DNA of 64,000 nt from Nemertoderma westbladi. Lineage: Eukaryota; Animalia; Xenacoelomorpha. The stretch lies in NCBI GenBank assembly GCA_032718475.1, contig JAUCBJ010004405.1, forward strand, positions 7,828-71,827, in the 5' to 3' direction. Under the pieces are notes generated by a model. That model was not told the DNA's origin and did not search any database. It worked only from the letters and a program-made list of their open reading frames with translations. Positions 8,956-63,890 of the stretch are shown one piece after another. Made by a program: the position numbers and the translations under genes. The stretch's first letter is position 1, and each line of letters begins with the position of its first letter.

Positions 8956-11900
8956 CTAAGCTGGGGAGTCCCTAGATGTTTGTTGGATTAGGGAGGTGGT
9001 CGTGGGAAGAGTATCTTGTCTTCCATAGTTTCCGGAGAGTTCTCTGTCTCTTTCCAGTAAACATAAGCGACCAACTGGGCGATTGAGCTGCTGTGTCTCG
9101 AAGACAATTCCTGGTTTCTTGAAGTTACGTCGCATGATGACGAGTTCTACCGATCGCACCAAACCGTCATCCGAGATGTGAGTCTCAATGATACGACCTG
9201 TCTGCCACCGCTTACGTGGAAGATCTGCATCCACAATAAGGACCATGTCTCCAGCGCTGACGTTTTCTTGCTGCGCAAACCACTTAGTTCGAAGTTGTAG
9301 CGTGGGCAGATAATGTTTTTCGAAATGGTCAGCGAAACGACGGGATAACAACTGCATGAGTTGCCAAGTTTGCCGGCAGTATTCGTCTCCGTCTGTGATT
9401 TCCGATTGTGGGAGCATGGCTACAGGTTTCTTCAGTAGGAAGTGCGCGGGTGTTAGCGCTTCCAGGGAATCGGGACTCGATGAGACTGGCATAAGCAGTC
9501 TCTCGTTGAGATAGGCGGCGATTTCCTCCATTAACGTCCGCAAAAGTTCGTCGGTGAGATACGCGCGGCACGGCACTATAAAGAGAAATGCGGTCTTCAC
9601 ACTTCTAATTAATCTCTCCCAACTTCCTCCCCACCAAGGGGCGTCGGCGGCGTTGAAGGTCCAGCTAGACGCTGTTACCTTTAGCTGATCGTCCACCTGT
9701 CTTTGGTTCCAATCTTTGACGTAATCTTTGATTTCATTGTTGGCACCAATGAAGTTTGTTCCCTTATCAGATCTCATCGTGTTGCTAGTTCCAAAGCGAG
9801 CGATCTGTTGTCGTAAGCTTAATAGGAAGCTGTTGGTAGATAAATCGTTCACCATATCGAGATGGATAGCTCTACAAGTCATACAAACAAAGATGACACA
9901 CCATCTCTTGACTATAGTCCTAGCACGATATACTTCAATAGGGCCAAATAAATCTACACCGGTATTAGTAAAGGGTGGTTCATAGAAGCTTACTCGTTCC
10001 CTAGGTAATTCTGCCTCTCGCTGTGTTAAAGGCCTACTGAATGCTTTCCTACAGGGTATGCAGTTCCTAAGAACTTGGTTCAGAGCTCTACGCGGTTTAT
10101 AAAAATAATAGCGAGTTCGAATTTCGCTAAGAACTCGTTCTCTACCAGCATGATAAAGTTTGCTGTGAACATCTACAATCATCTTGACTTGTATTTCAAG
10201 ATTTCTAATGAGTATGGGAAACTTAGTGTCAAAGGATAATGGAGCATTCGTTAATCTTCCTCCAACACGTATCAACCCATCTATCATTGTGCTAGCGAAA
10301 CGATCTCTTAAGCGCATCTGTGGATTTCTCAACAACAGGAAATACTTATCGGAATCATCATAGCATTGCAGGAGTCTCAGCATCTGCTTGTTGGTTTCTT
10401 CATGCTCCTGATAACCGATCTTCTCCTTCAGAAACCTGTCGGATATCTTATATTTGGGAAGATCTTTAACAACATGGACCTGCACCGATGTCAGGGGAGC
10501 GGTATCACCTTTGGTCTTCGTCCCGGAGTAGTGATGATGAAAACATCTTTTTAAATATGTAACGGCTTTACAGAGCCGATTCCAGGAACTGTAGTGATGT
10601 ATCGCTCTCTGCAGGAGAGGTAAGAGTCCTTGCGAGACGTCTGGTATTCCAGATTTCCAATCCTTCTCACGGATTTCCACAACAGACTTATTTATGGCTG
10701 TGGGTTTCTGATCCAAAGCGTCGTCTCCGGAAGTATGTAGTACAGACAGATCTACCATAGGTTTGAATAACTTCGATTTACTCGCCCGAGTTTTAGGTTT
10801 GACTTTCTCCGCTCCCTTGGCCTGTCTGATCTCTGCCGTAGTAAGATGAGGAGGCCATTCTTCTTCTTCTTTGTAGAGGAAGTCGGGTCCACCTAACCAG
10901 TCTGGAGTATCTACCAGTTCTTGTGGAGTAGCTCCCCTGGAGGCGATGTCTGCTGGATTGATCGTTCCGGGGCAATGTCTCCATTGATCCATTGTCGTGC
11001 GACTGAGTATAATAGCTACTCTGTTGGTAACGAAGACGCTGAACTGACAGACTTCATTGGTTATATACTCCAACACGAGTAAAGCATCGGTCCAATAGAC
11101 AGTTTTCTCCAGTGGATAGTCAATCTGTTCTGTTACATTCCGGCCGATGGCTGTAGCGTATAGAGCCGCTTTTAACTCCGCTCGAGGAACTTTCAACTTG
11201 TTGTTTATCAATGCCTTAGAGGTAACCAAGGCGACCTTGATTCCATCTGGAGTTTCCACTCTTAGGTAGGCTACTATACCTATTCCCATATCGCTGGCGT
11301 CTTCAAACACATGGAGTTGATAGGAATACGTAGGGAGAACATGACCAAAATATGAACGGGAAATTATAAAGTTCTCGATGGCTGGTAGAGAATCTTCCCA
11401 TTTCATCCACTTCTTTAATAATTCTCCCTTAAGTGGATTGTCCCATGAGTGGTTTTCAAGCCACATTTGTTGTACTAAACTCCGAGCAATCAATATAACT
11501 GGGCTAATAAATCCCAATGGATCGAAATAAGTGCTCAGGATACTTAAACAAATCCGTTTAGTCCGAACTGGATTATCTCGCTGTTTTAGCTGGAAAAACA
11601 GGATATCTCTCTCTGTGTCCCATTTCAAACCAAGTGTCTTGGTTTCTGGAAGATCATCTTTGATTAGATCTAGGTCTTTCGCTCCTCGATCTTCTACCGG
11701 GATCGACTCCAGAAACTCACGGGAGTTGCTGGTGAATTTAGTTAATCGAAATCCACCTCTTTTTAAGCACTCTACCGTTCCTTTAGCTACATCAGTGGCT
11801 TCTTCGACTGATGGAAGGGACTTTAGATTGTCGTCCATGTATATATCCCGTTTGATGTTGTCAATCACCTCTTTAGAGAAGGCTTCTCGGTTGTCATCCG

Positions 11901-13827
11901 CAGTGGTGCGCACCACTGAACAGGCGTTTGAAGGGCTTGAGATTATCCCAAAAGCCTGGATGGTCATCCAGTACTCCACCGGTTTCTGGTTGAGGTCTCC
12001 TTCAGGCCACCACAGAAATCGTAGGCTATCTCGATCCCTATCCAGCGCCTTGACTTGTAAGAACATGCCTTCTATATCTGAGGCGAAAGCGATTGAATAT
12101 TGTCTTAATCTTAAGAGTATTCCCAACAAGGATTGGAGTAAGTTGGGTCCGGGTAACAATTCGGAATTAAGGGATTGGCCCATATAAAGGGCGGAGCCGT
12201 CAAACACCACTCGTACCTCATGGGGTTTACCGGGTTTGGGAACGTAATAGTGAGTTAAATAATACTTTCTCTCAGTTATAGGTGTTTCTTCCGGTACTCG
12301 CTCCGCATATCCCTTGCTAATAAATTTCTTCAACTGCGTTTGATACATTTCTTTAGCTGAAGAATTTGCCGTAAGGCGTCGATGTAGTTGAGCAATTCTT
12401 TTCTCTGCCAAGGGTCTGTTGTTTATGAACTTTGGTTCTCGCTTTCGGAAAGGTAGGCCGATTTCATATCTACCTTGATCTTTAAGAAAACGTGTAGTTG
12501 TCTCTTGGATCTGCTTGGCTCTTTCTTCTTCTACCGATAGGGCCTTATCGTAGGAATTGGGCTCTACAGCCTCTTGAGTAAAGAATCGTACGGCGTGTTC
12601 ATCCCGAGTCTTGGCATTATAACGTTCAATGACGTCATTAAGTTCGTCGTTATAGTCGTCTCGTTCTGATGGACGAAGGAGCTGACATAAGTTCACTTGG
12701 TTTTGCCAAGTCTCGTTTTCCTTAAGGAGATCAATGGTATTCTCCTCGTCGAAGAGTTGGTGGACATCGTCGTTATCTGAGGAGTATGGTGTTCCCTCAG
12801 TTGGATCGTCTAACTCACTGCTCTCAACTTCCCATTCTCTTACTTGATATACCTGATCTTTTGGTAATCTTTCCATGAGAGTTCTACGGGAAGGGCCAGT
12901 AAAGTACCAACCCACTCTAGTTCTTCCCGCATAAGCTTGTAGTGGTTGCGGTTGAGCAGGCCGTTTCTCCAATGTCTCGAGCGCTTCATGCGCATTTTGA
13001 CCGATGAGTATTTGCACTCCAGGGTAATCGGTGGCGAATCTAGGTATTTCAAGCTGCTGGGTGAAATCGTCCTCATCCCAGTTATAAGGTTCCACTTGGC
13101 TGGTAGCGAAGTTCTTTATCGCCACCATCTTTACTGACCTTATACTATGTTCTCCTAGTTCATCCTGGGGGGTGGACAACGCACCTACATAATAATCCGC
13201 TATTACTGTAGATTTCCAAACCTGCATAATTCCTGACATGTTTAGCTTAGTTCGGAACTTGGGTTGTCCATCAAAGATGTCTTCGGCTAGTTCTTTGTCG
13301 ATGAATGTTCCTGTACTACCGGAGTCAAGGAGGGCGTTCACTATATAACTCCTTTTAGGTCCGTGGACCCTTAACTGTACTACAGGAAATTCTCGGATTC
13401 CTACATTGGAAGTTGGCGCTTTCCAAGATGGTTGTCGATCAGAAGTAGTTAGGGTGAGGTCGCTGGCTGTGTCTTTTTCATACGTAAGTGCTCGATACAC
13501 TGCGGTATTTATCATGTAACAGGATTCATCTTCGTCGGAGAATTCATCCGTATAGAATCCTTCCATCTCAGAACTTTGGTCAGTGTCGTTCACATCACTG
13601 AATTGGACATGTAATTCGGAATCACTTACCTGACTCTGGCTGTTTCGCTCGAATTCAGTGTGCAACAAGATATGATGTTTCGCACCGCACTTTGCACACC
13701 TTGTGTCGGAGTAACAGGTTCGCCGTTGGTGTCCTTGTCTGAGGCAATTATAACACAACCGCTTATCCCACATGACTTCCCGTCTATCCGTTAATGATTT
13801 CTTTAGGAATTCATCACACACATTCAA
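8956..13827 (-). CDS. pol: BEL/Pao Pol polyprotein (Zn knuckles-PR-RT-RNase H-integrase)
   Basis: LLDSGS; SDIEGMFLQV and YMDD; LHVFEDAS, RAEL, WTD, NPADIASRG; HHCC (HSKLYH..CIPC); GVDLFGP, SDKGTNF, GGSWERL; C-terminal DUF5641-like YLPTLQLRTKW...GDMVLI...DGLVRSV. Confidence 0.97.
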   Translation of the reverse strand: MNVCDEFLKKSLTDRREVMWDKRLCYNCLRQGHQRRTCYSDTRCAKCGAKHHILLHTEFERNSQSQVSDSELHVQFSDVNDTDQSSEMEGFYTDEFSDEDESCYMINTAVYRALTYEKDTASDLTLTTSDRQPSWKAPTSNVGIREFPVVQLRVHGPKRSYIVNALLDSGSTGTFIDKELAEDIFDGQPKFRTKLNMSGIMQVWKSTVIADYYVGALSTPQDELGEHSIRSVKMVAIKNFATSQVEPYNWDEDDFTQQLEIPRFATDYPGVQILIGQNAHEALETLEKRPAQPQPLQAYAGRTRVGWYFTGPSRRTLMERLPKDQVYQVREWEVESSELDDPTEGTPYSSDNDDVHQLFDEENTIDLLKENETWQNQVNLCQLLRPSERDDYNDELNDVIERYNAKTRDEHAVRFFTQEAVEPNSYDKALSVEEERAKQIQETTTRFLKDQGRYEIGLPFRKREPKFINNRPLAEKRIAQLHRRLTANSSAKEMYQTQLKKFISKGYAERVPEETPITERKYYLTHYYVPKPGKPHEVRVVFDGSALYMGQSLNSELLPGPNLLQSLLGILLRLRQYSIAFASDIEGMFLQVKALDRDRDSLRFLWWPEGDLNQKPVEYWMTIQAFGIISSPSNACSVVRTTADDNREAFSKEVIDNIKRDIYMDDNLKSLPSVEEATDVAKGTVECLKRGGFRLTKFTSNSREFLESIPVEDRGAKDLDLIKDDLPETKTLGLKWDTERDILFFQLKQRDNPVRTKRICLSILSTYFDPLGFISPVILIARSLVQQMWLENHSWDNPLKGELLKKWMKWEDSLPAIENFIISRSYFGHVLPTYSYQLHVFEDASDMGIGIVAYLRVETPDGIKVALVTSKALINNKLKVPRAELKAALYATAIGRNVTEQIDYPLEKTVYWTDALLVLEYITNEVCQFSVFVTNRVAIILSRTTMDQWRHCPGTINPADIASRGATPQELVDTPDWLGGPDFLYKEEEEWPPHLTTAEIRQAKGAEKVKPKTRASKSKLFKPMVDLSVLHTSGDDALDQKPTAINKSVVEIREKDWKSGIPDVSQGLLPLLQRAIHHYSSWNRLCKAVTYLKRCFHHHYSGTKTKGDTAPLTSVQVHVVKDLPKYKISDRFLKEKIGYQEHEETNKQMLRLLQCYDDSDKYFLLLRNPQMRLRDRFASTMIDGLIRVGGRLTNAPLSFDTKFPILIRNLEIQVKMIVDVHSKLYHAGRERVLSEIRTRYYFYKPRRALNQVLRNCIPCRKAFSRPLTQREAELPRERVSFYEPPFTNTGVDLFGPIEVYRARTIVKRWCVIFVCMTCRAIHLDMVNDLSTNSFLLSLRQQIARFGTSNTMRSDKGTNFIGANNEIKDYVKDWNQRQVDDQLKVTASSWTFNAADAPWWGGSWERLIRSVKTAFLFIVPCRAYLTDELLRTLMEEIAAYLNERLLMPVSSSPDSLEALTPAHFLLKKPVAMLPQSEITDGDEYCRQTWQLMQLLSRRFADHFEKHYLPTLQLRTKWFAQQENVSAGDMVLIVDADLPRKRWQTGRIIETHISDDGLVRSVELVIMRRNFKKPGIVFETQQLNRPVGRLCLLERDRELSGNYGRQDTLPTTTSLIQQTSRDSPA

Positions 13828-14899
13828 ACGGTGGGGCCCGTCACACAGCGCACATTTTTGGGGTTTTTCTTACCTGTTCTCTCCTGTCATTGGTTCGAGA
13901 CCTGAATTTACTTATGTCTTTGGGCGTTTTGTTGACATAATAAGATCTTTCAGTGTCTTTCCCGCTGTCCTCTCCTTGAGAAGCCTGGCTTTCGCCGTCG
14001 TCGGTATAACACACTGGTGTTACCTTTCTCCTAGAAACGGGTTTCTCACTTACCTTGTTTTCCGGTGTCTTCTATCTGGACTGCTTTAGGAGCTGTAATT
14101 TCACTTCTCCATCTAAGAATGACATGAGATCAGCCATGGTAGGGTCTCGTCGTTGCTGTTCCATCATATATAACACTTTCTTATCCCAGCGTGTACCTAC
14201 TCCACCCTTCGGTAAAGTAGAGGCCACAGCTCCAATAACCATAGAACTCTGATATTCATGAGACTTACCTAGCCAATCTAATTGTCTACAGATCTCCTGA
14301 ATCTCATCGGAAAACTCTATAATCCCGCTGCTAATGAATTTTCGGGACGCTACCAATTTTGCATACAAATACCTAGCTATGTTATTCCTATTACCATACC
14401 TGATGTTTAGGGTATCCCAAACTTGTCTTAATCCATCGGGATGTCCAATAAACTTTAACGCCATTAACTTGGGAGATCCTTCCAAGCACTCGATGAGGAA
14501 TCTAAGTTTCTCTCCGTTTGATAGCACAGAGTTCTGTATGTTATCTTTGTAATATTCATTAAAAGGTAACCATTTCATCTCATCTCCATTGAACTTGACG
14601 ATCTCTCCCACCTTGACCGCTTGACGGGCTTCGGTTCTAGCCATTTGACGCGTAAAACTTTCTTGGGCCATCGTGTTATTTAATATCGAGTTATCGGTAT
14701 ATAAATTTCTCGGATTATTATCAAGTCTATATGGGATATCATTGTCAACGGGTTTATAATTACCCTTAATAGGGTTTACTATAGGAGTTTCCACTTCGCT
14801 AGCAGTATAGATGCGTGTAGGCTCCACAACTTGCGCATGAAATACTTCAGACCTAACAGGTTGACACATTGTTACAGGGGGTGGTGGTATACCCTTTTG
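13828..14899 (-). pseudogene. gag: Element B Gag capsid-like (DUF1759-type) region
   Basis: VKFNGDEMKWLPF...EKLRFLIECLEGSPK. Nonsense TAG at 14072-14074 where element C has GAG; short deletion before the knuckles. Confidence 0.9.
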
Positions 14900-18764: not shown

Positions 18765-19340
18765 AAATATTACGCTACGCGTACAGACTACTCAAACAAA
18801 ATGCAGACCAAATACTGACAGACTACTATCAAGCCCAAACAAACTACGGTATATGCAGACTCCGAAATGGTTAGTTAGTATGCGTTCTAACCGAGTAGTA
18901 CGACTTATTCTTTCGAGGGGGTTTACCTCACAGCACTGGAAGCCCCTACGTTCCCAACTGGCACTTTATCAGACATACACTCTACACACACCGAAATCTC
19001 TTCAGACCCAACAACAGCCAGACAACAATCCAGCCTACAAATTATCTAAATAAGAAATATTACGCTACCCGTACAGACTACACAAACAAAGTACAAACTA
19101 AACGCTGGCAGACTACTATCAAGCCTAAATACACTACAGTATATGCAGACTCCGAAATGGTTAGTTAGTATGCGTTCTAACCGAGTAGTACGACTTATTC
19201 TTTCGAGGGGGTTTACCTCACAGCACTGGAAGCCCCTACTTTCCTAACTAGTACTTTTTCGGACATACGCTCTACACACACTACAGTCCCTTCAGACTTA
19301 ACAACAGTCAGACAACAGTCCAGCCTACAAATTATCTGTA
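18765..19340. repeat. Diverged ~290-bp tandem duplication in element B 5' UTR
   Basis: AAATATTACGCTAC...CAGCCTACAAATTATCT at 18765 and 19055; single copy in element C. Confidence 0.85.
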
Positions 19341-20516
19341 CAATCTGAGCAGGCTTACACGCCTTCTGCTCAATATTGGCCTACAAATAAATAAAACTGA
19401 CAGAAATAAGTAAAATCTCAATAAAAAACCAGGGCTGCAGTCCCTGATTAATTATTAAGGCCTACCGGTATATAATTATCAAAATCGAATAATACTGCTG
19501 TACCTGTACTGCTGTAGGTACCGGTCCGGGTGGTTAGGTAGTCAGGCCTACTAGGTACCGGTTAACCGGTACTTCAGCTTTATTGCCTACTGCAATACAG
19601 AAGCTATATCTGTTATTGTTCACGCTTTCAGACCTTTAGCAGTTTAACCTGCCAAATTGGGATGTCTTCTAGATAATAGATCGTCTTTAGCCTATGACAA
19701 GTATTTGATACACTACATTAGCCGAAGCCAGTCTATGCGCGATCATTCACCTGCTGGATATACCCGGGAGACTGGATTCGGAAGCCTAACCGTATTGCGG
19801 TGTAGGCCTACTGTATTATTCGACTGATCGTAATATATAATCTCTGACAAATATTATTCACTTTCGGGAAATATTAACAGTTCCTTTAGGACATCTACAC
19901 ACACTACAGTCCCTTCAGACTTAACAACAGTCAGACAACAGTCCAGCCTACAAATTATGTGTACAATCTGAGCAGGCTTACACGCCTTCTGCTCAATATT
20001 GGCCTACAAATAAATAAAACTGACAGAAATAAGTAAAATCTCAATAAAAAACCAGGGCTGCAGTCCCTGATTAATTATTAAGGCCTACCGGTATATAATT
20101 ATCAAAATCGAATAATACTGCTGTACCTGTACTGCTGTAGGTACCGGTCCGGGTGGTTAGGTAGTCAGGCCTACTAGGTACCGGTTAACCGGTACTTCAG
20201 CTTTATTGCCTACTGCAATACAGAAGCTATATCTGTTATTGTTCACGCTTTCAGACCTTTAGCAGTTTAACCTGCCAAATTGGGATGTCTTCTAGATAAT
20301 AGATCGTCTTTAGCCTATGACAAGTATTTGATACACTACATTAGCCGAAGCCAGTCTATGCGCGATCATTCACCTGCTGGATATACCCGGGAGACTGGAT
20401 TCGGAAGCCTAACCGTATTGCGGTGTAGGCCTACTGTATTATTCGACTGATCGTAATATATAATCTCTGACAAATATTATTCACTTTCGGGAAATATTAA
20501 CAGTTCCTTTAGGACG
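19271..20516. repeat. 623-bp near-perfect tandem duplication spanning the U5 end and primer site of element B
   Basis: 19271-19893 repeats at 19894-20516; the LTR end TGTTCACG occurs at both 19617 and 20240. Confidence 0.95.
20228..20239 (-). promoter_or_regulatory. Non-tRNA primer-binding position of element B (ATAACAGATATA)
   Basis: Abuts the LTR end, has no TGG, and is the exact complement of LTR site 20963-20974. Confidence 0.75.
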
Positions 20517-21415
20517 TGGCGCTCTAAATATGTAAACAGAGTTATGACTTAAACTAGACACAACGGGATGGCTATAGATTCACGTATATGGCGCATTCTT
20601 TAGGAGATGCTTTGTTATCAGTCACAATCATACACAATACTGCACAATGCTGCACACCGATCTGCCGACCTTCACTAATTTTAGTTACATATAAAGAGAA
20701 CAACAACCAATACATGTAGGGCCTATGAAATAGCATTAGATTTACTTCAAAACCACTTTAATGTAAGTCGCAATCGTTATATGTAACCGGTCTCTCTAAC
20801 CTTCAGTATATCAAGAAGATTGGGGTGTCTGATTATTGATTGATATTCTCCAATATAATAATATTCCATCAACAGATATAATGAATAACCGACAGTAAAT
20901 AGCAGTAAAATGCGGTGTTTGTAGTTGACAATATGATTAGGTGAGTGAGTAAGATTGTTTAGATAACAGATATACGTTCTATAATTAAGCCTACTAATGT
21001 TGGGCTAAAGACTGAAAACACAGAGATTCCGAAGCCGGTCTTCTGGGCTCAGGACAAAATGTAAACATTGACCCATAATGCATTGCGCGATTTCTCGGAG
21101 GTTTCTGTACAAAAAGCAGGAGAATCGCTCTGATTGGTTGACCGAACAAAGAAACACCAGAGAACAAGGAAAAGCTACACGTGTACAGCTCAGCTGTTAG
21201 CTGTCGTCATAGTAACTACACTGTTTCAAGAGGATCTAGCGCATTGCGTCATAGAATTGCTAATTATGTCCGCTAAAGTACACATACAGAAGAAATGGCT
21301 TTTTATGTCCACTAAAACACCAGTACAGTAAGGGTACGGCCTTTTATGCCTGTTAAACCAACTACAGAGTACTTTACGGGGAAAATAACCGGCTAATTCC
21401 GCAAAAGCTTTTACA
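20240..21415 (-). repeat. 5' LTR of element B
   Basis: TGTAAAAGC...GTGAACA on the minus strand, homologous end to end to the element C LTRs; flanked by GAACC of the satellite (probable target duplication). Confidence 0.95.
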
Positions 21416-48862: not shown

Positions 48863-48936
48863 CTATACAATCTATGGATGTTAAACATATAAACAATAAG
48901 ATTTATTTAAACTATATTTAATTTAAACTATTACAG

Positions 48937-49083: not shown

Positions 49084-49133
49084 GTAAGTTCGATATCACT
49101 GTACATCTACTGAGAGTTACATTCATTCAGTTT

Positions 49134-50319
49134 TGTTCGCGCTTTCAGACCTTTGGCAGTTTAACCCGCCAAATTAGGATGTCTTCTAGATAATAATTCG
49201 CTTTTAGCCTATGACAAGTATTTGATTCACTACACTAGTCGAAACCAATCTGTGCGCGATCATTCACCCGCTGGATATACCCGGGAGATTGGGTTCGACG
49301 GCTTAATCGTATTGCTATGTAGGCCTAATGTATTATTCGACTGACAGTATTATATAATCTCTGACAATATTATTCACCTTCGGGAAATATTAACAGTTCC
49401 TTTAGGACGTGGCGCTCTACCTATATAAACAGAGTCATGACTTAAACTACTCACAACGATATGGCTTAGTTACAATTCACATATATGGCGCATTCTTTAG
49501 GAAATGCTTCGTTATCAGTCTCACTAATACACAATGCTGCACAATACTGCACACTAATCTGCCGATCTTCACTGATTTTAGTCACATATAAAAGGAACAC
49601 GGACCGAATCATGTAGGGTCTATCAAATAACATTAGATTCACTTCAAACCACTTTAACATAAGTCACAATCGTTATATGTAACCTTTCTCTCTTACCTTC
49701 GGTACATCAAGAATATTGGGTTTTCGGGGTTATTTATCGTTATTCCAAATATAATAATTCATCAACCATATTATGAAGAACTGACAGTAAATAGCAGTAT
49801 AACAATATAAAAGTATGCACAGGTTGTTTGATTAGGTATGGTATGTTATGTTTAGTTGAGTTGAGATAACGGATATATGTCCTTATAATTAAGCCTACTA
49901 GTGTAAGACTAAAAACTGAAAACACGGAGGTGCCAAAAGCCGGTTCTTAGGCTCTGGGCAAAAACATACCACTGAACTACTGAGCCTCTGTATACACCTC
50001 CAACACAGAGACAACAAACGCTCTGATTGGTCAACCGAACAACGAGAGAACAAAGAAACAAAGAAACGTCGACGTGGCAATATCAGCTGTTAGCCATCGT
50101 CATGGTAGCGACACTGTTTTCAAGAGTATCTAGCTTATCGCGTCACGAGATTGTGGATTATGTCCTCTAAAGTACAAATACAGTACAAATACATAAGAAA
50201 TGACTTTTATGTCCTCTAAAACACCAGTACAGCAAGGACACGGCCTTTTTATGCCTGGCAAACCAACTACAGAGTACTTTAAGGGAAAATAACCGGTTAA
50301 TGACGCAAAAGCTTTTACA
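49134..50319 (-). repeat. 3' LTR of element C
   Basis: Direct repeat of 60650-61835; two mismatches noticed (49296/60812, 49969/61485). Confidence 0.98.
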
Positions 50320-50327
50320 CCGCTCCC
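50320..50327 (-). promoter_or_regulatory. Short polypurine-tract candidate
   Basis: GGGAGCGG immediately before TGTAAAAGC of the 3' LTR on the minus strand. Confidence 0.65.
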
Positions 50328-51921: not shown

Positions 51922-52393
51922 ATCTGCTATATAAATTTATCCATATTATAATGAGTTTATATTTAGGCGAGCGGGCGTCGCTGCCTACCCCAATCAGCCC
52001 CCGGACAGTGCGAGATCCTCAGCGCCGATGTACTTTTGCCAACGACGTAGCCGCACAACGACAACGACAACCGGCACAAGTCACTCCACTGTCCGTCCCA
52101 AAGGCTTAGATGTACTTCAGGTTTTCCTTGGAGAGTTAGGTTACTTTCACGATTGCGACTAGCTACTGTAAACACACTTTAGCAGTAACATTCACCTATA
52201 AACTCACAAATACCACACAACTGGTCACAACTACGCACATTCGGGCCATTTGTCCGTTAGTCAATGCCTTCCAGAATGTCACTGTATTATTATGTATCCT
52301 TGGATACTAGCAGTGCGCTATTTATTCCCTATGCTATTCAATGGGACAAGCTTTCTATTGTTCTTTTAACTCAATTCTAATTCTAGCGTGGTT

Positions 52394-52417
52394 GTTGCCA
52401 TGGTGACATTATGCAAA
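52394..52417. promoter_or_regulatory. RFX X-box with adjacent octamer-like site upstream of the extra ORF
   Basis: GTTGCCATGGTGAC (fits GTNRCC-AT-RGYAAC on the minus strand) directly followed by ATTATGCAAA. Confidence 0.5.
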
Positions 52418-53553: not shown

Positions 53554-55365
53554 TTACGTTATGGAGTCCCTAGATGTTTGAAGGATTAGGGAGGTGGTCG
53601 TGGGAAGAGAATCTTGCCTTCCACAGTTTCCGGAGAGTCCTCCATTCCCTTCCGGTAAACACAAACGACCGACTGGGTGATTGAGTCGCTGCATCCCGAA
53701 TACAATTCCAGGTTTCCTCTTCGTCCTGGAATAGTGACGATAGAAACATCGCTCTAGGTACACGACGGCCTTACAAAGCCGATTCCAGGAGCTATAGTGG
53801 TCCGTCGCTCCCTGCAGGAGAGGTGAGAGTCCCTGCGAGACATCTGATGTTCCAGAGCTCCAATCGCTCTCTCTGATCTTCATGAAGGATCCACTCGCGG
53901 TGGGGAGGTCCAGATCCACGGCGTCGTCCCTGGCAATATGTAATACCGACAGATCTATCCCGGGTTCAAATAACTCCGATCCACCCGTCCGGGTTTTAGG
54001 TTTGACTTTCTCCGCTCCCTTGGCTGGTCTAATCTCAGTCGGAGTAAGATGGGGAGGCCATTCATCCTCCTTACTCAGGAAGTCGGGTTCACCTAACCGG
54101 TCTGTAGTATCTGTCAGTTCTTGAGGAGTTGCTCCTCTGGAAGCGATGTCAGTTGGATTAAACTTCTTGGGGCAATATCTCCATTGATCTACATTGGAGC
54201 TAATATCGTCATTATCTGAGGAGTATGGTGTTCCCTCAGTTGGGTCGTCTCCCTCACTAGTATCATCTTCCCATTCACTCACCTGGCAGACGCGATCTTG
54301 AAGCAGTCTTTCTCTGAGCGTTCTTCGGGAAGGTCCAGTAAGGTACCAACCTACTCTAGTTCTTACCGCATAGGTCTGAAGTGGTTGCGGTTGAGTAGGT
54401 CGTTTCTCTAATGTCTCCAGCGCCTCATGCGCGTTTTGACCGATTAATATTTGTACTCCAGGATAATCGGTGTCGAATCTAGGAATGTTAAGTTGTTGGG
54501 CATGATCATCTTCGTCCCAATTATAAGGTTCCACTTGGGTGGTAGCGAAGTTCTTTATTGCCACCATTTTGACTGACCTTATACTGTGTTCTCCTAGTTT
54601 ATCCTGTGGAGTGGACAACTCACCTATATAATAGTCGGCAGCCACAGCAGATTTCCAAACCTGCATGATCCCTGACATGTTTAGCTTGGTTCGGAACTTG
54701 GGTTGTCCAGCAAAGATGTCTTCGGCTAGTTCTTTATCGATGAATGTTCCTGTGCTGCCGGAGTCCAGGAGGGCGTTCACTATATAGCTCTTCTGAGGTC
54801 CGTGGACCCGTAACTGGACTACAGGAAATTCTCGGATTCCTACATTTGAAGTTGGCGCTTTCCAAGATTGTTGTTGATCGGAAGTAGTTAGGGTGAGGTC
54901 GCTGTCTGTGTCTTTCTCATACATGAGTGCTCGATACACTGCGGTGGTGTTTATTAAGTAACAGGATTCGTTTTGGTCGGAGAATTCGTCCGTATAGAAT
55001 CCTTCCATCTCAGATTGATCAGTGTCGTTCACATCACTGAATTGGACATGTAGTTCGGAATCACTCACCTGACTCGGACTATTTCGCTCGAATTCAGTGT
55101 GCAACAAGATATGATGTTTCGCACCGCACTTTGCACACCTTGCGTCGGAGTAACAGGTTCGCCGTTGGGGTCCTCGTCTGAGGCAATTATAACACAACCG
55201 CTTATCCCACATGACTTCACGTCTATCCTTTAGTGATTTCCTCAGGAATTTATCACACGCATTTAAACGGTGGGGCCCGTCGCACAGCACACATTTCGGC
55301 TTGATGTTACTTACTTTAACCTGTGCTATGTGGTGCACACTTGTTCTTTCCTCGGGCTTTCTCAC
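53554..55365 (-). CDS. pol: Element C internally deleted Pol (knuckles and protease kept; RT, most RNase H and integrase missing)
   Basis: Collinear with element B pol but jumps from SSDNDD to DQWRYCP (~54195) and from HYSRTK to KPGIVF (~53719); the frame stays open; LLDSGS is intact. Confidence 0.92.
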   Translation of the reverse strand: MRKPEERTSVHHIAQVKVSNIKPKCVLCDGPHRLNACDKFLRKSLKDRREVMWDKRLCYNCLRRGPQRRTCYSDARCAKCGAKHHILLHTEFERNSPSQVSDSELHVQFSDVNDTDQSEMEGFYTDEFSDQNESCYLINTTAVYRALMYEKDTDSDLTLTTSDQQQSWKAPTSNVGIREFPVVQLRVHGPQKSYIVNALLDSGSTGTFIDKELAEDIFAGQPKFRTKLNMSGIMQVWKSAVAADYYIGELSTPQDKLGEHSIRSVKMVAIKNFATTQVEPYNWDEDDHAQQLNIPRFDTDYPGVQILIGQNAHEALETLEKRPTQPQPLQTYAVRTRVGWYLTGPSRRTLRERLLQDRVCQVSEWEDDTSEGDDPTEGTPYSSDNDDISSNVDQWRYCPKKFNPTDIASRGATPQELTDTTDRLGEPDFLSKEDEWPPHLTPTEIRPAKGAEKVKPKTRTGGSELFEPGIDLSVLHIARDDAVDLDLPTASGSFMKIRESDWSSGTSDVSQGLSPLLQGATDHYSSWNRLCKAVVYLERCFYRHYSRTKRKPGIVFGMQRLNHPVGRLCLPEGNGGLSGNCGRQDSLPTTTSLILQTSRDSIT

Positions 55366-56585
55366 CTGAATTCTTTAGGAGACGTAGGAGGGGTTTTTTG
55401 TACCGGTTCCCTTCTGTCATTGGGTCGAGACTTGGATTTACTTACCTGATCTTTAGGCATTTTATTGACATAATAAGACCTGTCAGTGTCTTTCCCGCTG
55501 TCCTCTCCTTGAGAGGTTTGGCTTTCACCGTCGTCGGTATAACATACTGGTGTTACCCTTCTCCTAGAAACGGGTTTCTCACTTACCTTACTTTCCGCTG
55601 TCTTCTCTCTGGACTGCTTTATGAGCTGTAATTTCACCTCGCTATCCAAGAATGACATGAGATCAGCCATGGTAGGGTCTCGTTGTTGTTGTTCCATCAT
55701 GTATAACACTTTCTTGTCCCAGCGTGTACCTACTCCACCCTTCGGTAAAGTAGAAGCCACTGCTCTAATAACCATAGCACTCTGATACTCATGAGACTTA
55801 CCTAGCCAATCTAATTGTCTGCAGATCTCCTGAATTTCATCGGAAAACTCTATAATCCCGCTGCTAATAAACTTTCGGGGCGCTACCAACTTTGCATACA
55901 AATACCCAGCTATGTTATTCCTATTACCATACCTGATGTTTAGTGTATCCCAAACTTGTCTTAATCCGTCTGGATGTCCAATAAACCTTAACGCCATTAA
56001 CTTGGGAGATCCTTCCAAGCACTCGATGAGGAATCTAAGTTTCTCTCCATTAGATAGTACAGAGTTCTGTATGTTATCTTTGTAATATTCATTAAAAGGT
56101 AACCATCCCATCTCATCTCCACTGAACTTGACGATCTCTCCCACCTTCACCGCTTGCCGGGCTTCGGTTCTAGCCATTTGTCGTGTAAAACTTTCTTGGG
56201 CCATCGTGTTATTTAATATCGAGTTATCGGTATATAAATTTCTCGGATTATGATCAGGTCTATAGGGAATGTCATTATCAACAGGTCTATAATTACCCTT
56301 AATAGGGTTCACTATAGGAGTTTCTACTTCGCTAGCAATATATATGCGTGTAGGCTCCACACCTTGCGCATGAGATACTTCAGACCTAACAGGTTGACAC
56401 ATTGTTACTGAGGGTGGTGGTATACCCCTTTGTGTATTTACTAATTTATCGCGTTCTAGCGCGATACTTTGCTGCACTTCTTGTAACTCTAGTCTACTTT
56501 CCCTTACTGTGCCCTTGAATTGCTGAACAGTCTCCTGCATCTGCCCGAGCAGGAGATCCATCCCCCGCGTCTCTCGTCCACCCAT
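55362..56585 (-). CDS. gag: Element C Gag capsid-like (DUF1759-type) region
   Basis: VKFSGDEMGWLPF...EKLRFLIECLEGSPK; out of frame with the upstream gag near 56570, whereas element B reads through there. Confidence 0.9.
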   Translation of the reverse strand: MGGRETRGMDLLLGQMQETVQQFKGTVRESRLELQEVQQSIALERDKLVNTQRGIPPPSVTMCQPVRSEVSHAQGVEPTRIYIASEVETPIVNPIKGNYRPVDNDIPYRPDHNPRNLYTDNSILNNTMAQESFTRQMARTEARQAVKVGEIVKFSGDEMGWLPFNEYYKDNIQNSVLSNGEKLRFLIECLEGSPKLMALRFIGHPDGLRQVWDTLNIRYGNRNNIAGYLYAKLVAPRKFISSGIIEFSDEIQEICRQLDWLGKSHEYQSAMVIRAVASTLPKGGVGTRWDKKVLYMMEQQQRDPTMADLMSFLDSEVKLQLIKQSREKTAESKVSEKPVSRRRVTPVCYTDDGESQTSQGEDSGKDTDRSYYVNKMPKDQVSKSKSRPNDRREPVQKTPPTSPKEFR

Positions 56586-58561
56586 TCGACCGCAGAAGCG
56601 GGAGTCGCCAACGTTGTAGCGGGCGGACGAGGGACAACGGGCGACAAATCATGAATATTTCGCTCGGGGTCCAGGACTTGAACTGTCTCATGGGCTGTTC
56701 TATTGGGCACAGATAGCTTAGTACTGTGTAGAGGGAATTTAGAGGTAACTTCAGGGAGCACAGGTGTGTCTATCACCGAAGGGGTGATTTCAAGAACAGG
56801 CCTAATTATTTCAGGCTCATCTACTATAGTAGGGAGTCTTTCTATTTTAATTGTTTGGTCTGTGGGTTCTGTACTACCTAAGTTGGTGTTATTTAGTTGC
56901 CTTCTAACAGCTGGAGGCAAATCAGGCAATTTCTGACGGTGGAATGTTCTTTTACGTCTGCTTAGACGAGATCTATTTCCTTTGCCTTCAGTATCGGTGG
57001 TATCACCTTCCTCAGATGATGTATATCCCTGTCGTTTGGGAGTAGATCGACTCATCATCTGCATATTACTAGCTGTTAACTGTTTATTTATGCAGTCTTG
57101 ATTCTCCTGAATGTTTTCCAATTCTAATTGGGTGGTTTCTTCGGAAGCTCTCCGTTCTGCTTCTGCTACTGCCTCGGCCGCTGTTACAGCCGCCTTTCTT
57201 TCTGCTTCGGCCGCTGCCGCTGCCACTTTTCTTTCGGCTTCTGCCTCTGCCTCTGCCGCCTTTCTTTCGGCTTCTGCCTCTGCCTCTGCCGCCTTTCTTT
57301 CGGCTTCTGCCTCTGCCTCTGCCGCTGCCACTGCCGCTTTTCTTTCTGCTTCTGCCGCTGCCACTGCTGCTGCCACTGCCGCTGTCTTTCTGTCTTCTAT
57401 ACGTTTTTTCTTGACTTGCTCCTCCTGGACTCGTGTGATGCGGAGTTGTTCATCAAATTTAGCCTGGTTCGCAGCCCTCATTTCCACATCGATGGCATCC
57501 AACACAAGCTTGGTTCCTTCACTATTAGGGCTAAGTCCCTCTAACCTTCTCCTCAACTCGTCATCACCTAAAAAACGTTGATAGTCTGACAGATAGATGT
57601 CAATGGCATCCCTCTTATGCGGTTTCTCTGCCGTCGCTTCACTTTCCACTTGGGAAAAAGTAGCGTCTGTTGATTCTCCATGGGTTGAGCGCTCCTCCAG
57701 CTGAGCTTTCCACTGAGCTGTTCCTTGAACCTGGCGACTCACCCGTTGAAACCAAGTCTTTACGGCAACTTGCAACGACGTGTCTTGTCTTCTTTTAGAA
57801 GCCTCTTCAAAGGCTGATAATATTAGCCTGATTCGCAGAATTCTTTCTCTAACTTGATAAAGCAGTTGTCCCTGCTCTTGAGGTCCTTGAGGTTGTTGTA
57901 ACAGTTGTTTTTCTACTCGCTCCATAGAGCTGAAGAATCCCTGTGCGTATCCGGCTGCGGACCTCTTCCACACAGCTGGATCGATGGTTTCCTTGGCTAC
58001 TCCCATCTGGTGTATGTCTTCCCAGGCAGCTTCTGATAAATCAAACGGGAGTCCGGGTCCGGGGAAGTTCCATTGCGACTCGACAATAGACTTCAGTTCT
58101 TCCCTCGTGTATCCCGCATAACTATCTCTAGTTGATCGCTGACTTCTCGCCCAATCGATCTGGTGTTCTTCCACCGCAATCAATAACCTAGTGAGTACGG
58201 CTGCAGGAAGGATGAGAAGGGGATCCGAATAAACCGCATCCATCATCCTTGCTCCGCGCTCGGGTGTCAGTTCTACAGTATCTTCACTACTGGAGCTGTC
58301 GGGCCGCTGAGAAATAAGTTCTTGGCTCGCGGGTTGTTGCTGTTCCGCTGCTTCTTGGTCCCGCTTGACCTGAGCTCGAGTGCCTATGATAGACCTACGA
58401 TGTTGGACCAGCCTAGGTTCTTTTATTACTACTGGAGGGATGACCTTCCTCACAGTGGGGGGTGAACTGAACTTAGGTGTAGACAGTTCTACGCCTTTAT
58501 CTGAGTCGCAGATAGTTACATCTAATAAACTGTCTGACAGGTTCTGCTTAGTATCAGACAT
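56504..58561 (-). CDS. gag: Element C Gag N-terminal coiled-coil region
   Basis: 685-aa ORF from ATG 58561 with AEAERKAA repeats; homologous to element B. Confidence 0.9.
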   Translation of the reverse strand: MSDTKQNLSDSLLDVTICDSDKGVELSTPKFSSPPTVRKVIPPVVIKEPRLVQHRRSIIGTRAQVKRDQEAAEQQQPASQELISQRPDSSSSEDTVELTPERGARMMDAVYSDPLLILPAAVLTRLLIAVEEHQIDWARSQRSTRDSYAGYTREELKSIVESQWNFPGPGLPFDLSEAAWEDIHQMGVAKETIDPAVWKRSAAGYAQGFFSSMERVEKQLLQQPQGPQEQGQLLYQVRERILRIRLILSAFEEASKRRQDTSLQVAVKTWFQRVSRQVQGTAQWKAQLEERSTHGESTDATFSQVESEATAEKPHKRDAIDIYLSDYQRFLGDDELRRRLEGLSPNSEGTKLVLDAIDVEMRAANQAKFDEQLRITRVQEEQVKKKRIEDRKTAAVAAAVAAAEAERKAAVAAAEAEAEAERKAAEAEAEAERKAAEAEAEAERKVAAAAAEAERKAAVTAAEAVAEAERRASEETTQLELENIQENQDCINKQLTASNMQMMSRSTPKRQGYTSSEEGDTTDTEGKGNRSRLSRRKRTFHRQKLPDLPPAVRRQLNNTNLGSTEPTDQTIKIERLPTIVDEPEIIRPVLEITPSVIDTPVLPEVTSKFPLHSTKLSVPNRTAHETVQVLDPERNIHDLSPVVPRPPATTLATPASAVEWVDERRGGWISCSGRCRRLFSNSRAQ

Positions 58562-60638
58562 GTTTGTTTAAACAGTTGAATGTCTACCGCTATATTACAG
58601 TCTAAGCAAGTCTAGTAATTCAGTGTTAACTGCTAGCCTAGTAATTAATTACCGATACTGCTACTCAATGTAGCGTGATATATATAATATATTAGAATAC
58701 CGGTATGCTTATAGTATATATAACTATATAAGTATTATTACAGACTAGGTTTATCACAGAATACCGGTATAATTTTAGCACAAAGATATATAAATATATA
58801 ATAGGCCTATCGGGAATACCGGTATACAGTTTACAGTTTGTAGTATATATAATTCTGGACTAGAATTAATTACAAGTACCGGTATAATTTCAGCCTAAAT
58901 TTATAGAAATAAAGATAATAGGCCTATCGTAAATACCGGTATGCAGTTTACAATTATAGTGTATATATATAAGTATAATTACAAACTATAATTAATTACA
59001 GAATACCGGTATGATTTCAACCTAAAATTTATAGAAATAAATATAATAAGCCTATTGTAAATACCGGTATATCAATTATTTTAAATAACTGAATTTCTGA
59101 ATTTTAAGGGTTACTTGGTTACTTTAACTTACTTTATTGCCGTTATTTAAGCAGTAGTCCAACTGATATTGAGACCTAATTGTTGTGTGGCAGGCCTACT
59201 ATTTATAAATCGTTTGAGTTGATTTATAATATATATATATATACCCGTTTAATGGGTTTTGTCAATGTTTGAAATAAATGTTATTATTTCTGGGGAGTAA
59301 TCACTACACAAAGCGGTGCGCTTTCAGTGAAGTGTTACTTATAGGACACTAAAACAAATAATGCTAATTTACCTAAGTTACTTAATACTACAAATTACGT
59401 ACAATTCGGGTGAGATTACAATCTCTAAATAAACACAAAAATTTACAAAAACACAAAATACGAATTTTCAGGGTAATTTTACAAGAAGTCTACAAACCAG
59501 CCTAACAAAGGGTTAGAAATCTGGTTATTACAACGGACAGGGTACTACGGTATTTGAAAATAATAAGTAGTAGTAAATACACTGCGTTGTCCAGATAGGA
59601 AAATACCACCGCCTGACGACCTATAGCCGTATCGCTATAGGTACTACGTTATGTATCACCTAGAGTGTTCCTACCTAGAAGTTAATAGAGCTAATCGAAC
59701 GTGCCTATCAACCACTTTACAACACAAATATAATGCCTACACTAATTACTTTCGGAAAGCACTGTACACTAAACCCTAAATTAGGTACGAGTACTTGTAC
59801 AACAGATAATCAGTAGTTAAATATACTTGAACAGTTAAAAGAACCACGGCATCTGCTGGAGTGACCGGTGCACAAAATCACCAGTCTTTACCTACGCCAA
59901 GCAGCCCGTGTAGTACCGGGGTTAATTTAACTATAGCGGTATGTATAACAAACACAATTATTGTAGGAACAAACTTGGGGAATGAATGTTGCGAATAATC
60001 GCATAAACTCTGAATAATAAATATTACGCTACGCGTACAAACTACTCAAACAAAATGCAGACCAAATACTGACAGACTACTATCAAGCCTAAATAAACTA
60101 CAGGACATGCAGACTCCGAAATGATTAGGTAGTATGCGTTCTAACCCAGTAGTACGACTTATTCTTTAGATGGGGGTTTACCTTACAGCTTTGGCTGCCC
60201 CTACTTCCTAACCGTTCTTTATCGGACAGAGGCTCTACACACACTGCAATCCTTTCAGACTTAACAACAATCAGACAACAGCTCAGCCTACAAATTGTCT
60301 GTACAATCTGATCAGGCTTACACGCCTTCTGTTCAATACTGGCCTACAAACAAATAAAACTCGACAGAAATAAGTAAAAATCTCAATAAAAAACCAGGGC
60401 TGCAGTCCCTGATTAATTATTAAGGCCTACCGGTATATAATTATCAAAATCGAATAATACTGCTGTACCTGTACTGCTGTATGTACCGGTCCGGGTGGTT
60501 AGGTAGTCAGGCCTACTTGGTACCGGTTGCCGGTACTTCAGCTTTATTGCCTACTGCAATACAGAAGCAATATCCGTTATTGTTCTTACCAGAACAATAT
60601 TAAACTGTATTTAATGCCTACACTGCAATACAGACTAA

Positions 60639-60649
60639 ATATCCGTTAT
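60639..60649 (-). promoter_or_regulatory. Non-tRNA primer-binding position of element C (ATAACGGATAT)
   Basis: Abuts the 5' LTR end and is the exact complement of LTR sites 61382-61392 and 49866-49876; a second copy lies at 60570-60580. Confidence 0.75.
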
Positions 60650-61835
60650 TGTTCGCGCTTTCAGACCTTTGGCAGTTTAACCCGCCAAATTAGGATGTCT
60701 TCTAGATAATAATTCGCTTTTAGCCTATGACAAGTATTTGATTCACTACACTAGTCGAAACCAATCTGTGCGCGATCATTCACCCGCTGGATATACCCGG
60801 GAGATTGGGTTTGACGGCTTAATCGTATTGCTATGTAGGCCTAATGTATTATTCGACTGACAGTATTATATAATCTCTGACAATATTATTCACCTTCGGG
60901 AAATATTAACAGTTCCTTTAGGACGTGGCGCTCTACCTATATAAACAGAGTCATGACTTAAACTACTCACAACGATATGGCTTAGTTACAATTCACATAT
61001 ATGGCGCATTCTTTAGGAAATGCTTCGTTATCAGTCTCACTAATACACAATGCTGCACAATACTGCACACTAATCTGCCGATCTTCACTGATTTTAGTCA
61101 CATATAAAAGGAACACGGACCGAATCATGTAGGGTCTATCAAATAACATTAGATTCACTTCAAACCACTTTAACATAAGTCACAATCGTTATATGTAACC
61201 TTTCTCTCTTACCTTCGGTACATCAAGAATATTGGGTTTTCGGGGTTATTTATCGTTATTCCAAATATAATAATTCATCAACCATATTATGAAGAACTGA
61301 CAGTAAATAGCAGTATAACAATATAAAAGTATGCACAGGTTGTTTGATTAGGTATGGTATGTTATGTTTAGTTGAGTTGAGATAACGGATATATGTCCTT
61401 ATAATTAAGCCTACTAGTGTAAGACTAAAAACTGAAAACACGGAGGTGCCAAAAGCCGGTTCTTAGGCTCTGGGCAAAAACATAACACTGAACTACTGAG
61501 CCTCTGTATACACCTCCAACACAGAGACAACAAACGCTCTGATTGGTCAACCGAACAACGAGAGAACAAAGAAACAAAGAAACGTCGACGTGGCAATATC
61601 AGCTGTTAGCCATCGTCATGGTAGCGACACTGTTTTCAAGAGTATCTAGCTTATCGCGTCACGAGATTGTGGATTATGTCCTCTAAAGTACAAATACAGT
61701 ACAAATACATAAGAAATGACTTTTATGTCCTCTAAAACACCAGTACAGCAAGGACACGGCCTTTTTATGCCTGGCAAACCAACTACAGAGTACTTTAAGG
61801 GAAAATAACCGGTTAATGACGCAAAAGCTTTTACA
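60650..61835 (-). repeat. 5' LTR of element C
   Basis: TGTAAAAGC...GCGAACA; CCAAT near 61542-61546 and a TTCAGT initiator-like motif near 61433, both shared with element B. Confidence 0.98.
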
Positions 61836-62617
61836 AGTTTTCCAATAGACGACAACATTATGGTAAATTAACTGAAATATATTGAATCTCTTACATTAAC
61901 TATCAATATTTCCTCGACAAACTGCAGTATTCGCTTAAGCAGCCACTATAATGCTTCAAATTGTAGATTAAAATAGATATTGAAGAACATTAACTAACTA
62001 TGATTTATCTTTTTCATTAGGAAATATCGAATTCCAATTTGATATTGTAAGCTTTCCGCGTGTGAATTTCAACTCAAAATGCACGTTTGATTTCATACAT
62101 ATAGGAATACACTGCAACTACACAGTATTGTATATACCGGTGCCACAAAACACGTAAGAAAAAATATATCAATCAGTATCTGAAAATAACATCATTATGG
62201 AACTTCATGACTTAAAGTTATCGGCAGAAAACATTATTTTTCTATAGAGTTTTAGGTAATATATTTATCGGTTGCATGTAGACTAAACTAATTATCTATT
62301 GCTGTGTGATTGTGAACTTATAAATATTATTTAAAATAAAAAAATAATATTGTTTAAATTAAACCAACTCATTCATTAACCTATGATTTATTGTCTAATG
62401 TATACAGATAATATATACATAGATATATACATACATATTCATATTTTTTATATATTTTAAAATCTCTTTCAACACCAACAATGCGTGTGTCAGGTGGCTT
62501 ACAAATAAATATTTCTCGATATTATATTTTTCAATTAATAAATATACACCGCTCATCAGAAATACACATATTCATATATACACATGTACATCGATATATG
62601 TTTACATTTTGTTTCAG

Positions 62618-62767: not shown

Positions 62768-63678
62768 CGAAGTTATGGTGATCCCAGGAGGATATCTTAA
62801 TTTGAGACAAAATAAGATAAGTAGTGCGATTTGAAAGAACATAATTATTGTTTAAATCCGGAACGTTTCGTATATTACGTTATACATCATCAGCCATAAT
62901 ACTGTAGGTACAAAATAACTATAATTATATGAAAAAACCTACAATTAATGTAAAAGATAAGAGTAAACAAAATTCAAAATGTGATAGGATGGGTAATTAC
63001 GATAAATGTAAATTAGAATATTTTTACTAAGTATAATGAAGTAAATGCAGAATTACAGAGAAATTATAGAAAAAATTACAGTACCGGTAGCAATCAAAGA
63101 CTAAAGGCAGTAAACTAACTAGGTAGTGTGTTCATTACAGTAGATACATTAGAATTGTAAGGTATGTAATAGTTATCATAATTAAAATAGATATAGCGGG
63201 AATGAAGTGCCTTGTATGTTAAGTGATGGTCTTCGTTTCTGTATAATTAGACTTTCTTTAATTAGTAGATCGTAGTTGTTAGTGGCTGTACCTATAATAT
63301 TAAAGTCTTGGTATTCGAATTACATACCTTACAATTCTAATGTATCTACTGTAATGAACACACTACCTAGTTAGTTTACTGCCTTTAGTCTTTGATTGCT
63401 ACCGGTACTGTAATTTTTTCTATAATTTCTCTGTAATTCTGCATTTACTTCATTATACTTAGTAAAAATATTCTAATTTACATTTATCGTAATTACCCAT
63501 CCTATCACATTTTGAATTTTGTTTACTCTTATCTTTTACATTAATTGTAGGTTTTTTCATATAATTATAGTTATTTTGTACCTACAGTATTATGGCTGAT
63601 GATGTATAACGTAATATACGAAACGTTCCGGGTTTAAACAATAATTATGTTCTTTCAAATCGCACTACTTATCTTATT
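62768..63678 (-). mobile_element. 5'-truncated Penelope-like element with inverted pseudo-LTRs
   Basis: 360-bp inverted arms 62811-63170 / 63319-63678. The minus-strand spacer encodes the GIY-YIG C-terminus FNIIGTATNNYDLLIKESLIIQKRRPSLNIQGTSFPLYLF*. Flanked by duplicated TTATTGGTGAGT. Confidence 0.9.
63593..63630 (+). ncRNA. Minimal hammerhead ribozyme motif in the Penelope arm (mirror copy on the minus strand near 62859-62896)
   Basis: TGG-CTGATGA-T-GTATA/TATAC stem II-GAAACGTT-CCG; palindromic stem III as in Penelope minimal hammerheads; stem I is only ~3 bp. Confidence 0.65.
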
Positions 63679-63733: not shown

Positions 63734-63890
63734 GGCTCGTTAAGCCAAGGAATGCCTGTTCACCACCATGGGTGATCTTCCACAGTAAACCCTTCCACTC
63801 TGTTTCCCAAGTTGCCTTGGTTCCCATTTATCGACCACTGAAGGATGAAAGCCGGGGTTTGACTAGGCTGCAGCATTTAAAGCACTGTGT
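63734..63890 (-). mobile_element. SINE fragment with a single copy of the 63-bp satellite unit
   Basis: Deu/Nin-like GCTTTCATCCTTCAGTGGTCGATAAATG followed by one unit GGAAACAGAGTGGAAGGG...CAGGCATTCCTT and tail GGCTTAACGAGCC. Confidence 0.8.

Follow-up and report, generated by a model that had tools for sequence, protein, structure and literature searches.

A BEL/Pao retrotransposon family in Nemertoderma westbladi with a candidate self-primer in its LTR, and predicted spliced primers in its relatives

The window analysed here, a stretch of 64,000 nucleotides of Nemertoderma westbladi DNA, contains three BEL/Pao elements (A, B and C), all of them on the minus strand. Element A (450-5590) runs off the left end of the window, element B (about 8290-21415) has a single LTR, and element C (49134-61835) has two. 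The 5' LTR of C (60650..61835, 1186 bp) and its 3' LTR (49134..50319) have TG...CA ends and differ from each other at 2 of 1186 bases. A 5-bp target-site duplication, AGTTT, flanks the element (49129..49133 and 61836..61840, plus strand), and a polypurine tract (GGGAGCGG, 50320..50327, minus strand) precedes the 3' LTR. C carries a gag frame with the Pfam domain DUF1759 (55362..56648, minus strand) and a remnant of pol from the protease region (53554..55374, minus strand), while no counterpart of the RT core and integrase stretches of B was found in it. To judge from its near-identical LTRs, its intact target duplication and the absence of RT and integrase matches, C is a recently moved non-autonomous copy. 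The 5' LTR of B (20240..21415, minus strand, 1176 bp) is 80.9% identical to that of C, and its pol frame (8956..13869, minus strand) is free of stops over 1637 aa, with Cys-His boxes, a protease (LLDSG), an RT (YMDD), Peptidase_A17, an integrase zinc finger and DUF5641. The three Cys-His boxes at the start of this frame form a triple box like that described in the available text of PMC554778. The order of the pol domains (protease, RT, RNase H, integrase) and the BEL/Pao-specific Pfam matches (Peptidase_A17 at 1.6e-35, DUF5641 at 5.5e-20, Integrase_H2C2 and DUF1759 of gag) are those of BEL/Pao, as are the LTR ends, the target-site duplication and the polypurine tract. The RT of A is 49% identical to that of B over 183 columns, and no LTR or primer site of A could be identified in 5590-8300.

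Several other features of the window were recorded. Upstream of A, a TATA-like motif, an AATAAA and a ...GTTACA end stand in LTR-like order at 7718-7870 (minus strand) and are not tied to A. Long, charged, Ala/Glu-rich frames bearing repeats occur in all three elements (3395-5590 in A, 15572-17152 in B and 56504-58567 in C, all minus strand), upstream of the DUF1759 gag domain, in a separate frame and with no Pfam match. C also has a 381-aa frame between the pol remnant and the 3' LTR (50791-51936, minus strand) with no Pfam or usable Atlas match. A palindromic 240-bp element at 48628-48867 contains a tRNA-like stretch (48726-48786; Rfam tRNA score 24.8 bits, under the cut-off of 29) flanked by long terminal inverted repeats, and looks like a small tRNA-bearing MITE or a SINE-like repeat. 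A satellite of units of approximately 63-65 bp is present in both orientations (21408-23286, 31478-32228 and 63747-63810) and abuts the start of the B LTR at 21415. At 62811-63678 lies a 360-bp inverted repeat pair that is 99.7% identical, suggesting a young foldback element.

The predicted primer-binding site of C (ATAACGGATAT, 60639..60649, minus strand) follows the 5' LTR directly, with no gap and no TGG. Its 11 bases are the exact complement of nt 444-454 of the 5' LTR, the predicted self-primer (ATATCCGTTAT, 61382..61392, minus strand), which lies 732 nt from the LTR end; the same 11-mer is present in the 3' LTR (49866..49876, minus strand). In B, the primer-binding site (ATAACAGATATA, 20228..20239, minus strand) faces a predicted self-primer at LTR nt 442-453 (TATATCTGTTAT, 20963..20974, minus strand), and 12 pairs are kept through one matched change, C>T together with G>A. 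Expressed as an LTR complement of at least 10 nt that starts 0-5 nt past the LTR, the match is 11 nt in C and 12 nt in B, both at offset 0. A preliminary description of this DNA had reported these sites and their complements, the lack of a TGG in C and a duplex ending exactly at the LTR boundary, and all of its coordinates hold, as does its statement that the diverged LTR of B keeps the pairing by a matched change. The first TGG of the C leader is at nt 59, inside an insert that is absent from B, and there is none in the first 40 nt of the B leader. With no TGG at the boundary, a whole tRNA, with its 3' CCA, would be unable to pair there. In this the family departs from the definition of BEL/Pao, in which the primer site pairs with a host tRNA at its 3' end. 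ARAGORN found no tRNA within the window.

The primer site recurs within both elements, which the preliminary description had missed. A second copy, together with the last LTR bases (60570..60585, minus strand, primer site at 60570-60580), lies 69 nt deeper in the C leader, in the 69-bp insert; B is without that insert and has one copy per junction. B has its own 622-bp tandem duplication (19271..19892, minus strand), which repeats the LTR end and the primer site (19605-19616). The stretch 60581-60638 of the C insert contains a 7-bp hairpin and is thinly covered in host contigs; joints listed for X1 and X4 run back over it, a hint of other copies with repeated primer sites.

How far the two elements can carry the argument was judged by dinucleotide shuffling of the LTR. 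At offset 0, an exact 11-mer arose in 21 of 20,000 shuffles for C and 31 of 20,000 for B, rising to 61 and 103 of 20,000, respectively, when offsets 0-5 were allowed. A chance match in the window alone is therefore unlikely, at approximately 1e-3 to 5e-3, although this is higher than the 3e-4 calculated in the preliminary description, and a single covarying pair is thin evidence. Both bases that differ between B and C are CpG-type transitions. Among 310 aligned CpGs of C, 18 read TG and 30 read CA in B, compared with 7.0% transitions per column; this small excess weakens the single covarying pair only a little, and CpG decay was set aside as the source of the matched change. Identity between C and B is 85% over LTR nt 395-456 and 50% right after. 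In host contigs from two runs the C primer site is deeply covered, with no variant at 18% or more among the differences listed; the LTR segment is at the edge of the compared stretch, where cover is low, and in one comparison the differences listed are 40 of 194. The self-priming proposed in the preliminary description is supported, mainly by the relatives described below, while the evidence that it offered itself, one 11-mer and one changed pair, is weaker than was stated.

Relatives were collected by a protein search, in which the closest were 35-42% identical (best 120 of 796 matches), and by an alignment query built from B and 34 relatives. The named relatives among the matches listed are from echinoderms, corals, a tunicate, molluscs, fish and a barnacle. 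The genome contigs yielded 45 loci and the metagenome contigs 79, the latter from 14 of the collection's 64 parts, with the best 80 of 559 confirmed. Neither a single-protein scan nor the alignment query returned relatives in viral contigs, and the single-protein scan of genome contigs returned none either. Loci L080-L124 are animal BEL/Pao elements in contigs that are filed as bacterial or archaeal and come from sponge-type samples; they are likely host DNA. In 20 families, 7 with a TGG site and 13 without, the LTR end was fixed independently by direct repeats. Duplicates (e.g. L030, L036, L084) were removed from the family set, as were loci with an unclear LTR pair or a repeat ending at the contig end (e.g. 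L034, L086, L095, L114, L116).

When the LTRs of the families without TGG were searched for exact, unsplit complements, most gave matches of 7-9 nt that start right after a pyrimidine run followed by AG, and when the LTRs were read by eye the remainder of the complement was found upstream, just before a donor of the type GT(A/G)AG. Under a strict splice rule, 7 of 12 loci without TGG had 11-15 nt across the junction, and L049, C and B had 11-12 nt unsplit; no swapped pair reached 10 nt (0 of 404). A relaxed rule, set after the LTRs had been read by eye, was then applied to one locus per family, with the swap control under the same rule. Counting C, there are 14 families without TGG, and in 12 of these the primer site has a perfect complement of 10-15 nt within the LTR of the same family, at offsets 0-4: nine only across a predicted GT-AG junction (10-15 nt), and three, L025, L049 and C, as unsplit 11-mers. 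The pairing letters differ in each of the 12. No element with TGG exceeded 6 nt (0 of 7), and no swapped pair reached 10 nt (0 of 182). The two families that do not match are L080, with 10 of 11 across a junction, and L102, with 12 nt further from an uncertain LTR end. No spliced complement was found in C or B.

Further comparisons point the same way. Between L083 and L084, which are 91% identical, two bases of exon 1 have changed together with the two primer-site bases that face them, and the pairing is kept. A wide scan, in which the match itself picks the LTR end, gave at least 10 nt in 31 of 97 regions compared with 91 of 1492 swaps, and at least 11 nt in 24 of 97 compared with 27 of 1492. 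Among the 97 regions are duplicates and all three window elements, as well as many contigs that may stop short of an LTR; 30 of the 124 loci, with too little upstream sequence, lie outside the scan. The top matches of L036, L053, L080, L085, L103 and L114 were judged to be chance, being off the repeat-fixed LTR end or in simple repeats.

Two loci with 95.5% RT identity, L073 and L075, differ by a whole predicted intron of 168 nt and are joined at the predicted base, so that L075 would be either an intron-less copy or assembled from spliced RNA. Eight of nine spliced families have an A(A/T)TAAA signal beyond the acceptor, at a distance of 8-99 nt, and this position would place the primer inside R. 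TATA-like motifs stand 93-171 nt before the donor in five of the nine spliced relatives and 34-36 nt before it in one, with none in three. The primer of the relatives is thus probably inside R and not at the very 5' end of the RNA. The acceptor is 52-223 nt from the LTR end in the relatives (14-family set), compared with 732 nt for the segment of the window family, which is likely a form without the intron. We consider it probable that, in a large clade of aquatic-animal BEL/Pao elements, tRNA priming has been replaced by a primer that an intron in the LTR splits and the host spliceosome assembles. Only the spliced 5' RNA would pair, the 3' LTR copy would keep the intron, and occasional splicing of that copy would give rise to intron-less lines, the window family among them.

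When 113 RT-RNase H segments were placed in a quick tree, B came out as sister (SH-aLRT 98) to a clade of 93 rows that contains all spliced-type loci. A more careful tree of 34 typed rows, which leaves out the short RT segments of L080, L085 and L102, puts B in a 27-row clade (100/100) made up of all 24 self-pairing rows and three TGG rows. The branch of B is long (2.15) and its exact placement unsure, and the window family is 38-47% identical to its relatives in RT. The fewest changes of primer type that the careful tree allows is three. The TGG rows L015, L047 and L053 are nested in the self-pairing clade with the spliced L045 among them, suggesting that the mode of priming switched at least once more within the clade. 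The unsplit L049 lies inside a 100/100 group of spliced families, which fits intron loss. The nearest named hosts, at 35-42% identity, only suggest which named clade (Suzu, Sinbad, Sparrow, Surcouf) the window family may belong to.

The LTRs of C and B share candidate signals. A motif at 61431..61445 (minus strand), kept in both elements, reads as an initiator (TCAGT, LTR nt 401-405) or as a splice acceptor (a pyrimidine run and CAG), and is a candidate for the 5' boundary of the RNA, approximately 40 nt upstream of the primer. A putative CCAAT box (61542..61546, minus strand; LTR nt 279-290, nt 290 in C) is also kept in both. C alone has a TATAA at LTR nt 433 (61399..61403, minus strand), 11 nt before the segment, where B reads TATAG; read as a TATA box, it would put the RNA start downstream of the primer. 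AATAAA is absent from both LTRs. Priming from a poly(A) site was considered and rejected, since in the relatives the signals lie downstream of the segment, and C and B have no evident signal. The primer of the window family is probably inside R as well, and probably not the first 11 nt of the RNA.

In folds predicted for 950-1090 nt of 5' RNA, the primer duplex has a probability of 0.0 in the ensemble of both C and B. Most of the primer segment pairs with nearby sequence (unpaired 0.11), and the energy penalty for imposing the duplex is 26 kcal/mol in C and 10 in B. Extra pairing beside the core of 11-12 bp is not significant (among 1000 shuffles it was reached 48 times for C outer, 619 for C inner and 134 for B). 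B and C share an identical inverted repeat of 11 bp, with one arm in U5 (60846..60856, minus strand) and the other in the leader (60450..60460, minus strand); its helix would enclose the primer site. The mean pair probability of this helix is 0.98-0.99 in C and 0.84 and 0.22 in B, with no covariation. It would cross the primer duplex, and the folding program does not model the two together.

Self-priming of the Tf1 type is said to have been described by Levin in 1995 and 1996, and the RNase H cut and the rewriting of the primer site in Tf1 were reportedly the work of Levin in 1996 and Atwood-Moore in 2006. Cer7, a BEL/Pao element of C. elegans, has been proposed to encode its own primer, as a tRNA-like insert and not as an LTR segment. 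In Tf1-type elements priming is by a short piece of the 5' LTR, which pairs with a site adjoining the LTR and is cut off, according to the available portions of PMC4600332, PMC5341516 and PMC6317226. These same portions describe Tf1 and Tf2 of S. pombe, Tj1 of S. japonicus, Tf1/sushi elements and Tcn1 chromoviruses as likewise without a tRNA site. Tf1-type systems are Ty3/gypsy, whereas the window family is BEL/Pao by its pol; it works like Tf1 and is not a member of that group. As in Tf1, the pairing is kept while the letters change (one pair between B and C, two between L083 and L084, and across 12 families). As far as the available text goes, the mRNA of Tf1 and Tj1 begins with the segment. 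In the window family the segment probably lies within R, at 732 nt from the LTR end, and in 9 of the 12 matching BEL/Pao families, in contrast to Tf1, a predicted intron splits it. Of the likeness to Tf1 drawn in the preliminary description, the proposed LTR-derived primer is retained; its position, probably inside R, and its formation in most relatives only by predicted splicing depart from that model.

The available text of PMC6317226 reports self-priming for Tf1/sushi and Tcn1 and predicts it for the TAR lineage of plant Ty1/copia elements (Houba, Osr-1) from an LTR complement of at least 10 nt to the bases 0-5 nt after the LTR; C and B likewise have such a complement. TAR belongs to another superfamily and kingdom, and that text describes no primer split by an intron. 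With the Belpaoviridae of the ICTV (PMC8742986) the window elements share the set and order of domains, LTRs of 1.2 kb, TG...CA ends, a 5-bp target duplication and a polypurine tract. They are without the 18-nt site for host tRNA-Arg or tRNA-Gly that is given there, where replication is primed by host tRNA only, and at about 12.7 kb or more they are larger than the 4-10 kb stated (PMC8742986). The preliminary description knew of no self-priming in BEL/Pao, and a literature search that covered few subscription papers, with Repbase Reports, GyDB and supplements outside it, likewise found no report of it or of a spliced primer in the text available. Searched by term in such text, the BEL/Pao survey PMC3118150 has no discussion of PBS, tRNA or priming, in PMC554778 "primer" stands only for PCR primers, and PMC6238403 has 0 matches for PBS and primer; the accessible parts of PMC3601003 and PMC13524379 have nothing further on BEL/Pao priming.

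We propose that the window family primes its minus-strand DNA in cis with a segment of its own LTR, and put the probability of this at roughly three in four; that the primer is encoded by the element, by whatever route, is very probable. The RNA would start upstream of the segment, near LTR nt 340-405, and the primer would be an RNA of roughly 50-110 nt with the primer segment in its last 11 nt. This segment would pair with the primer site, and a cut after LTR nt 454 would free a 3'-OH; the element's own RNase H may make this cut, by analogy with Tf1 as described in the available text of PMC5341516 and PMC4600332. The RT would copy 732 nt up to the cut and then jump to the 3' LTR. By the same analogy (PMC5341516, PMC4600332, in part), the primer site would be rewritten in each cycle as the primer is copied during plus-strand synthesis, which would explain why both sites changed together. 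In most relatives the predicted intron splits the segment, so that only spliced 5' RNA would pair, and under the usual scheme of strand transfer the 3' LTR copy would retain the intron. Counting against the proposal are the zero predicted probability of the duplex, a span far longer than in the relatives, the TATAA close before the segment in C, the absence of AATAAA from both LTRs, the long branch and low RT identity of the window family, the three TGG elements inside its clade, and a splice rule that was relaxed after the LTRs had been read. This would likely be a BEL/Pao element working like Tf1 at the priming step, a variant of a known mechanism.

It is also possible, if unlikely, that the primer is element-encoded and acts in trans, supplied by short transcripts from the LTRs of other copies or from solo LTRs, or that it comes from the 3' LTR segment of the same RNA. 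The loop of 732 nt and the predicted probability of zero for the duplex in cis would be accounted for in this way, the unsplit segment of C and B is present in the 3' LTR too, and the family is very deeply covered in host contigs. However, in B, C, L083 and L084 the primer site matches the segment of that same copy, as expected for an RNA that primes itself, and in the relatives the poly(A)-type signal downstream of the segment places the natural 3' end of the RNA elsewhere than the primer end. That the pairing is instead a structural or regulatory helix, serving packaging, dimerisation, splicing or control of translation while something else primes, seems to us quite improbable. Inverted repeats of 10-11 bp are common in these AT-rich regions, and the well-folding U5-leader repeat indicates that long-range helices other than a primer exist. 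Against this, the pairing arm always begins within 0-4 nt of the LTR end, the usual place of a primer site, and it replaces the TGG site, while elements that have TGG are without the pairing (0 of 7).

Priming by a host RNA, a half-tRNA or other small RNA of which the LTR segment would be a captured copy, is more doubtful still. The segment of B resembles what we take to be the pattern of an Asn anticodon loop, which we count in favour of this explanation, but the C variant, the main form in two runs, breaks that pattern. Priming by half-tRNAs is known in Ty1/copia lineages, according to the available text of PMC6317226. Yet the letters are specific to each family and match its own LTR, often across a junction, making one host RNA per family implausible, and a comparison of the LTR and leader with Rfam at E up to 1 was negative. 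A chance match followed by two independent CpG transitions, which the 61-103 of 20,000 shuffles at offsets 0-5 and the CpG type of both changes might suggest, is scarcely credible for a match that persists through 19% LTR divergence and recurs in 11 other families compared with 0 of 182 swaps.

If self-priming from the LTR is correct, it would extend self-primed reverse transcription to a third LTR superfamily, one that the ICTV defines as tRNA-primed, and would explain the many marine BEL/Pao elements that have no recognisable primer site. It would also provide a simple rule for the annotation of such elements. If splicing builds the primer, the onset of reverse transcription would be coupled to the RNA processing of the host. 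The nested tRNA-type elements in the same clade suggest that the mode of priming can switch. For the elements themselves, dependence on tRNA would be removed, and with it their exposure to interference by tRNA fragments at the primer site.
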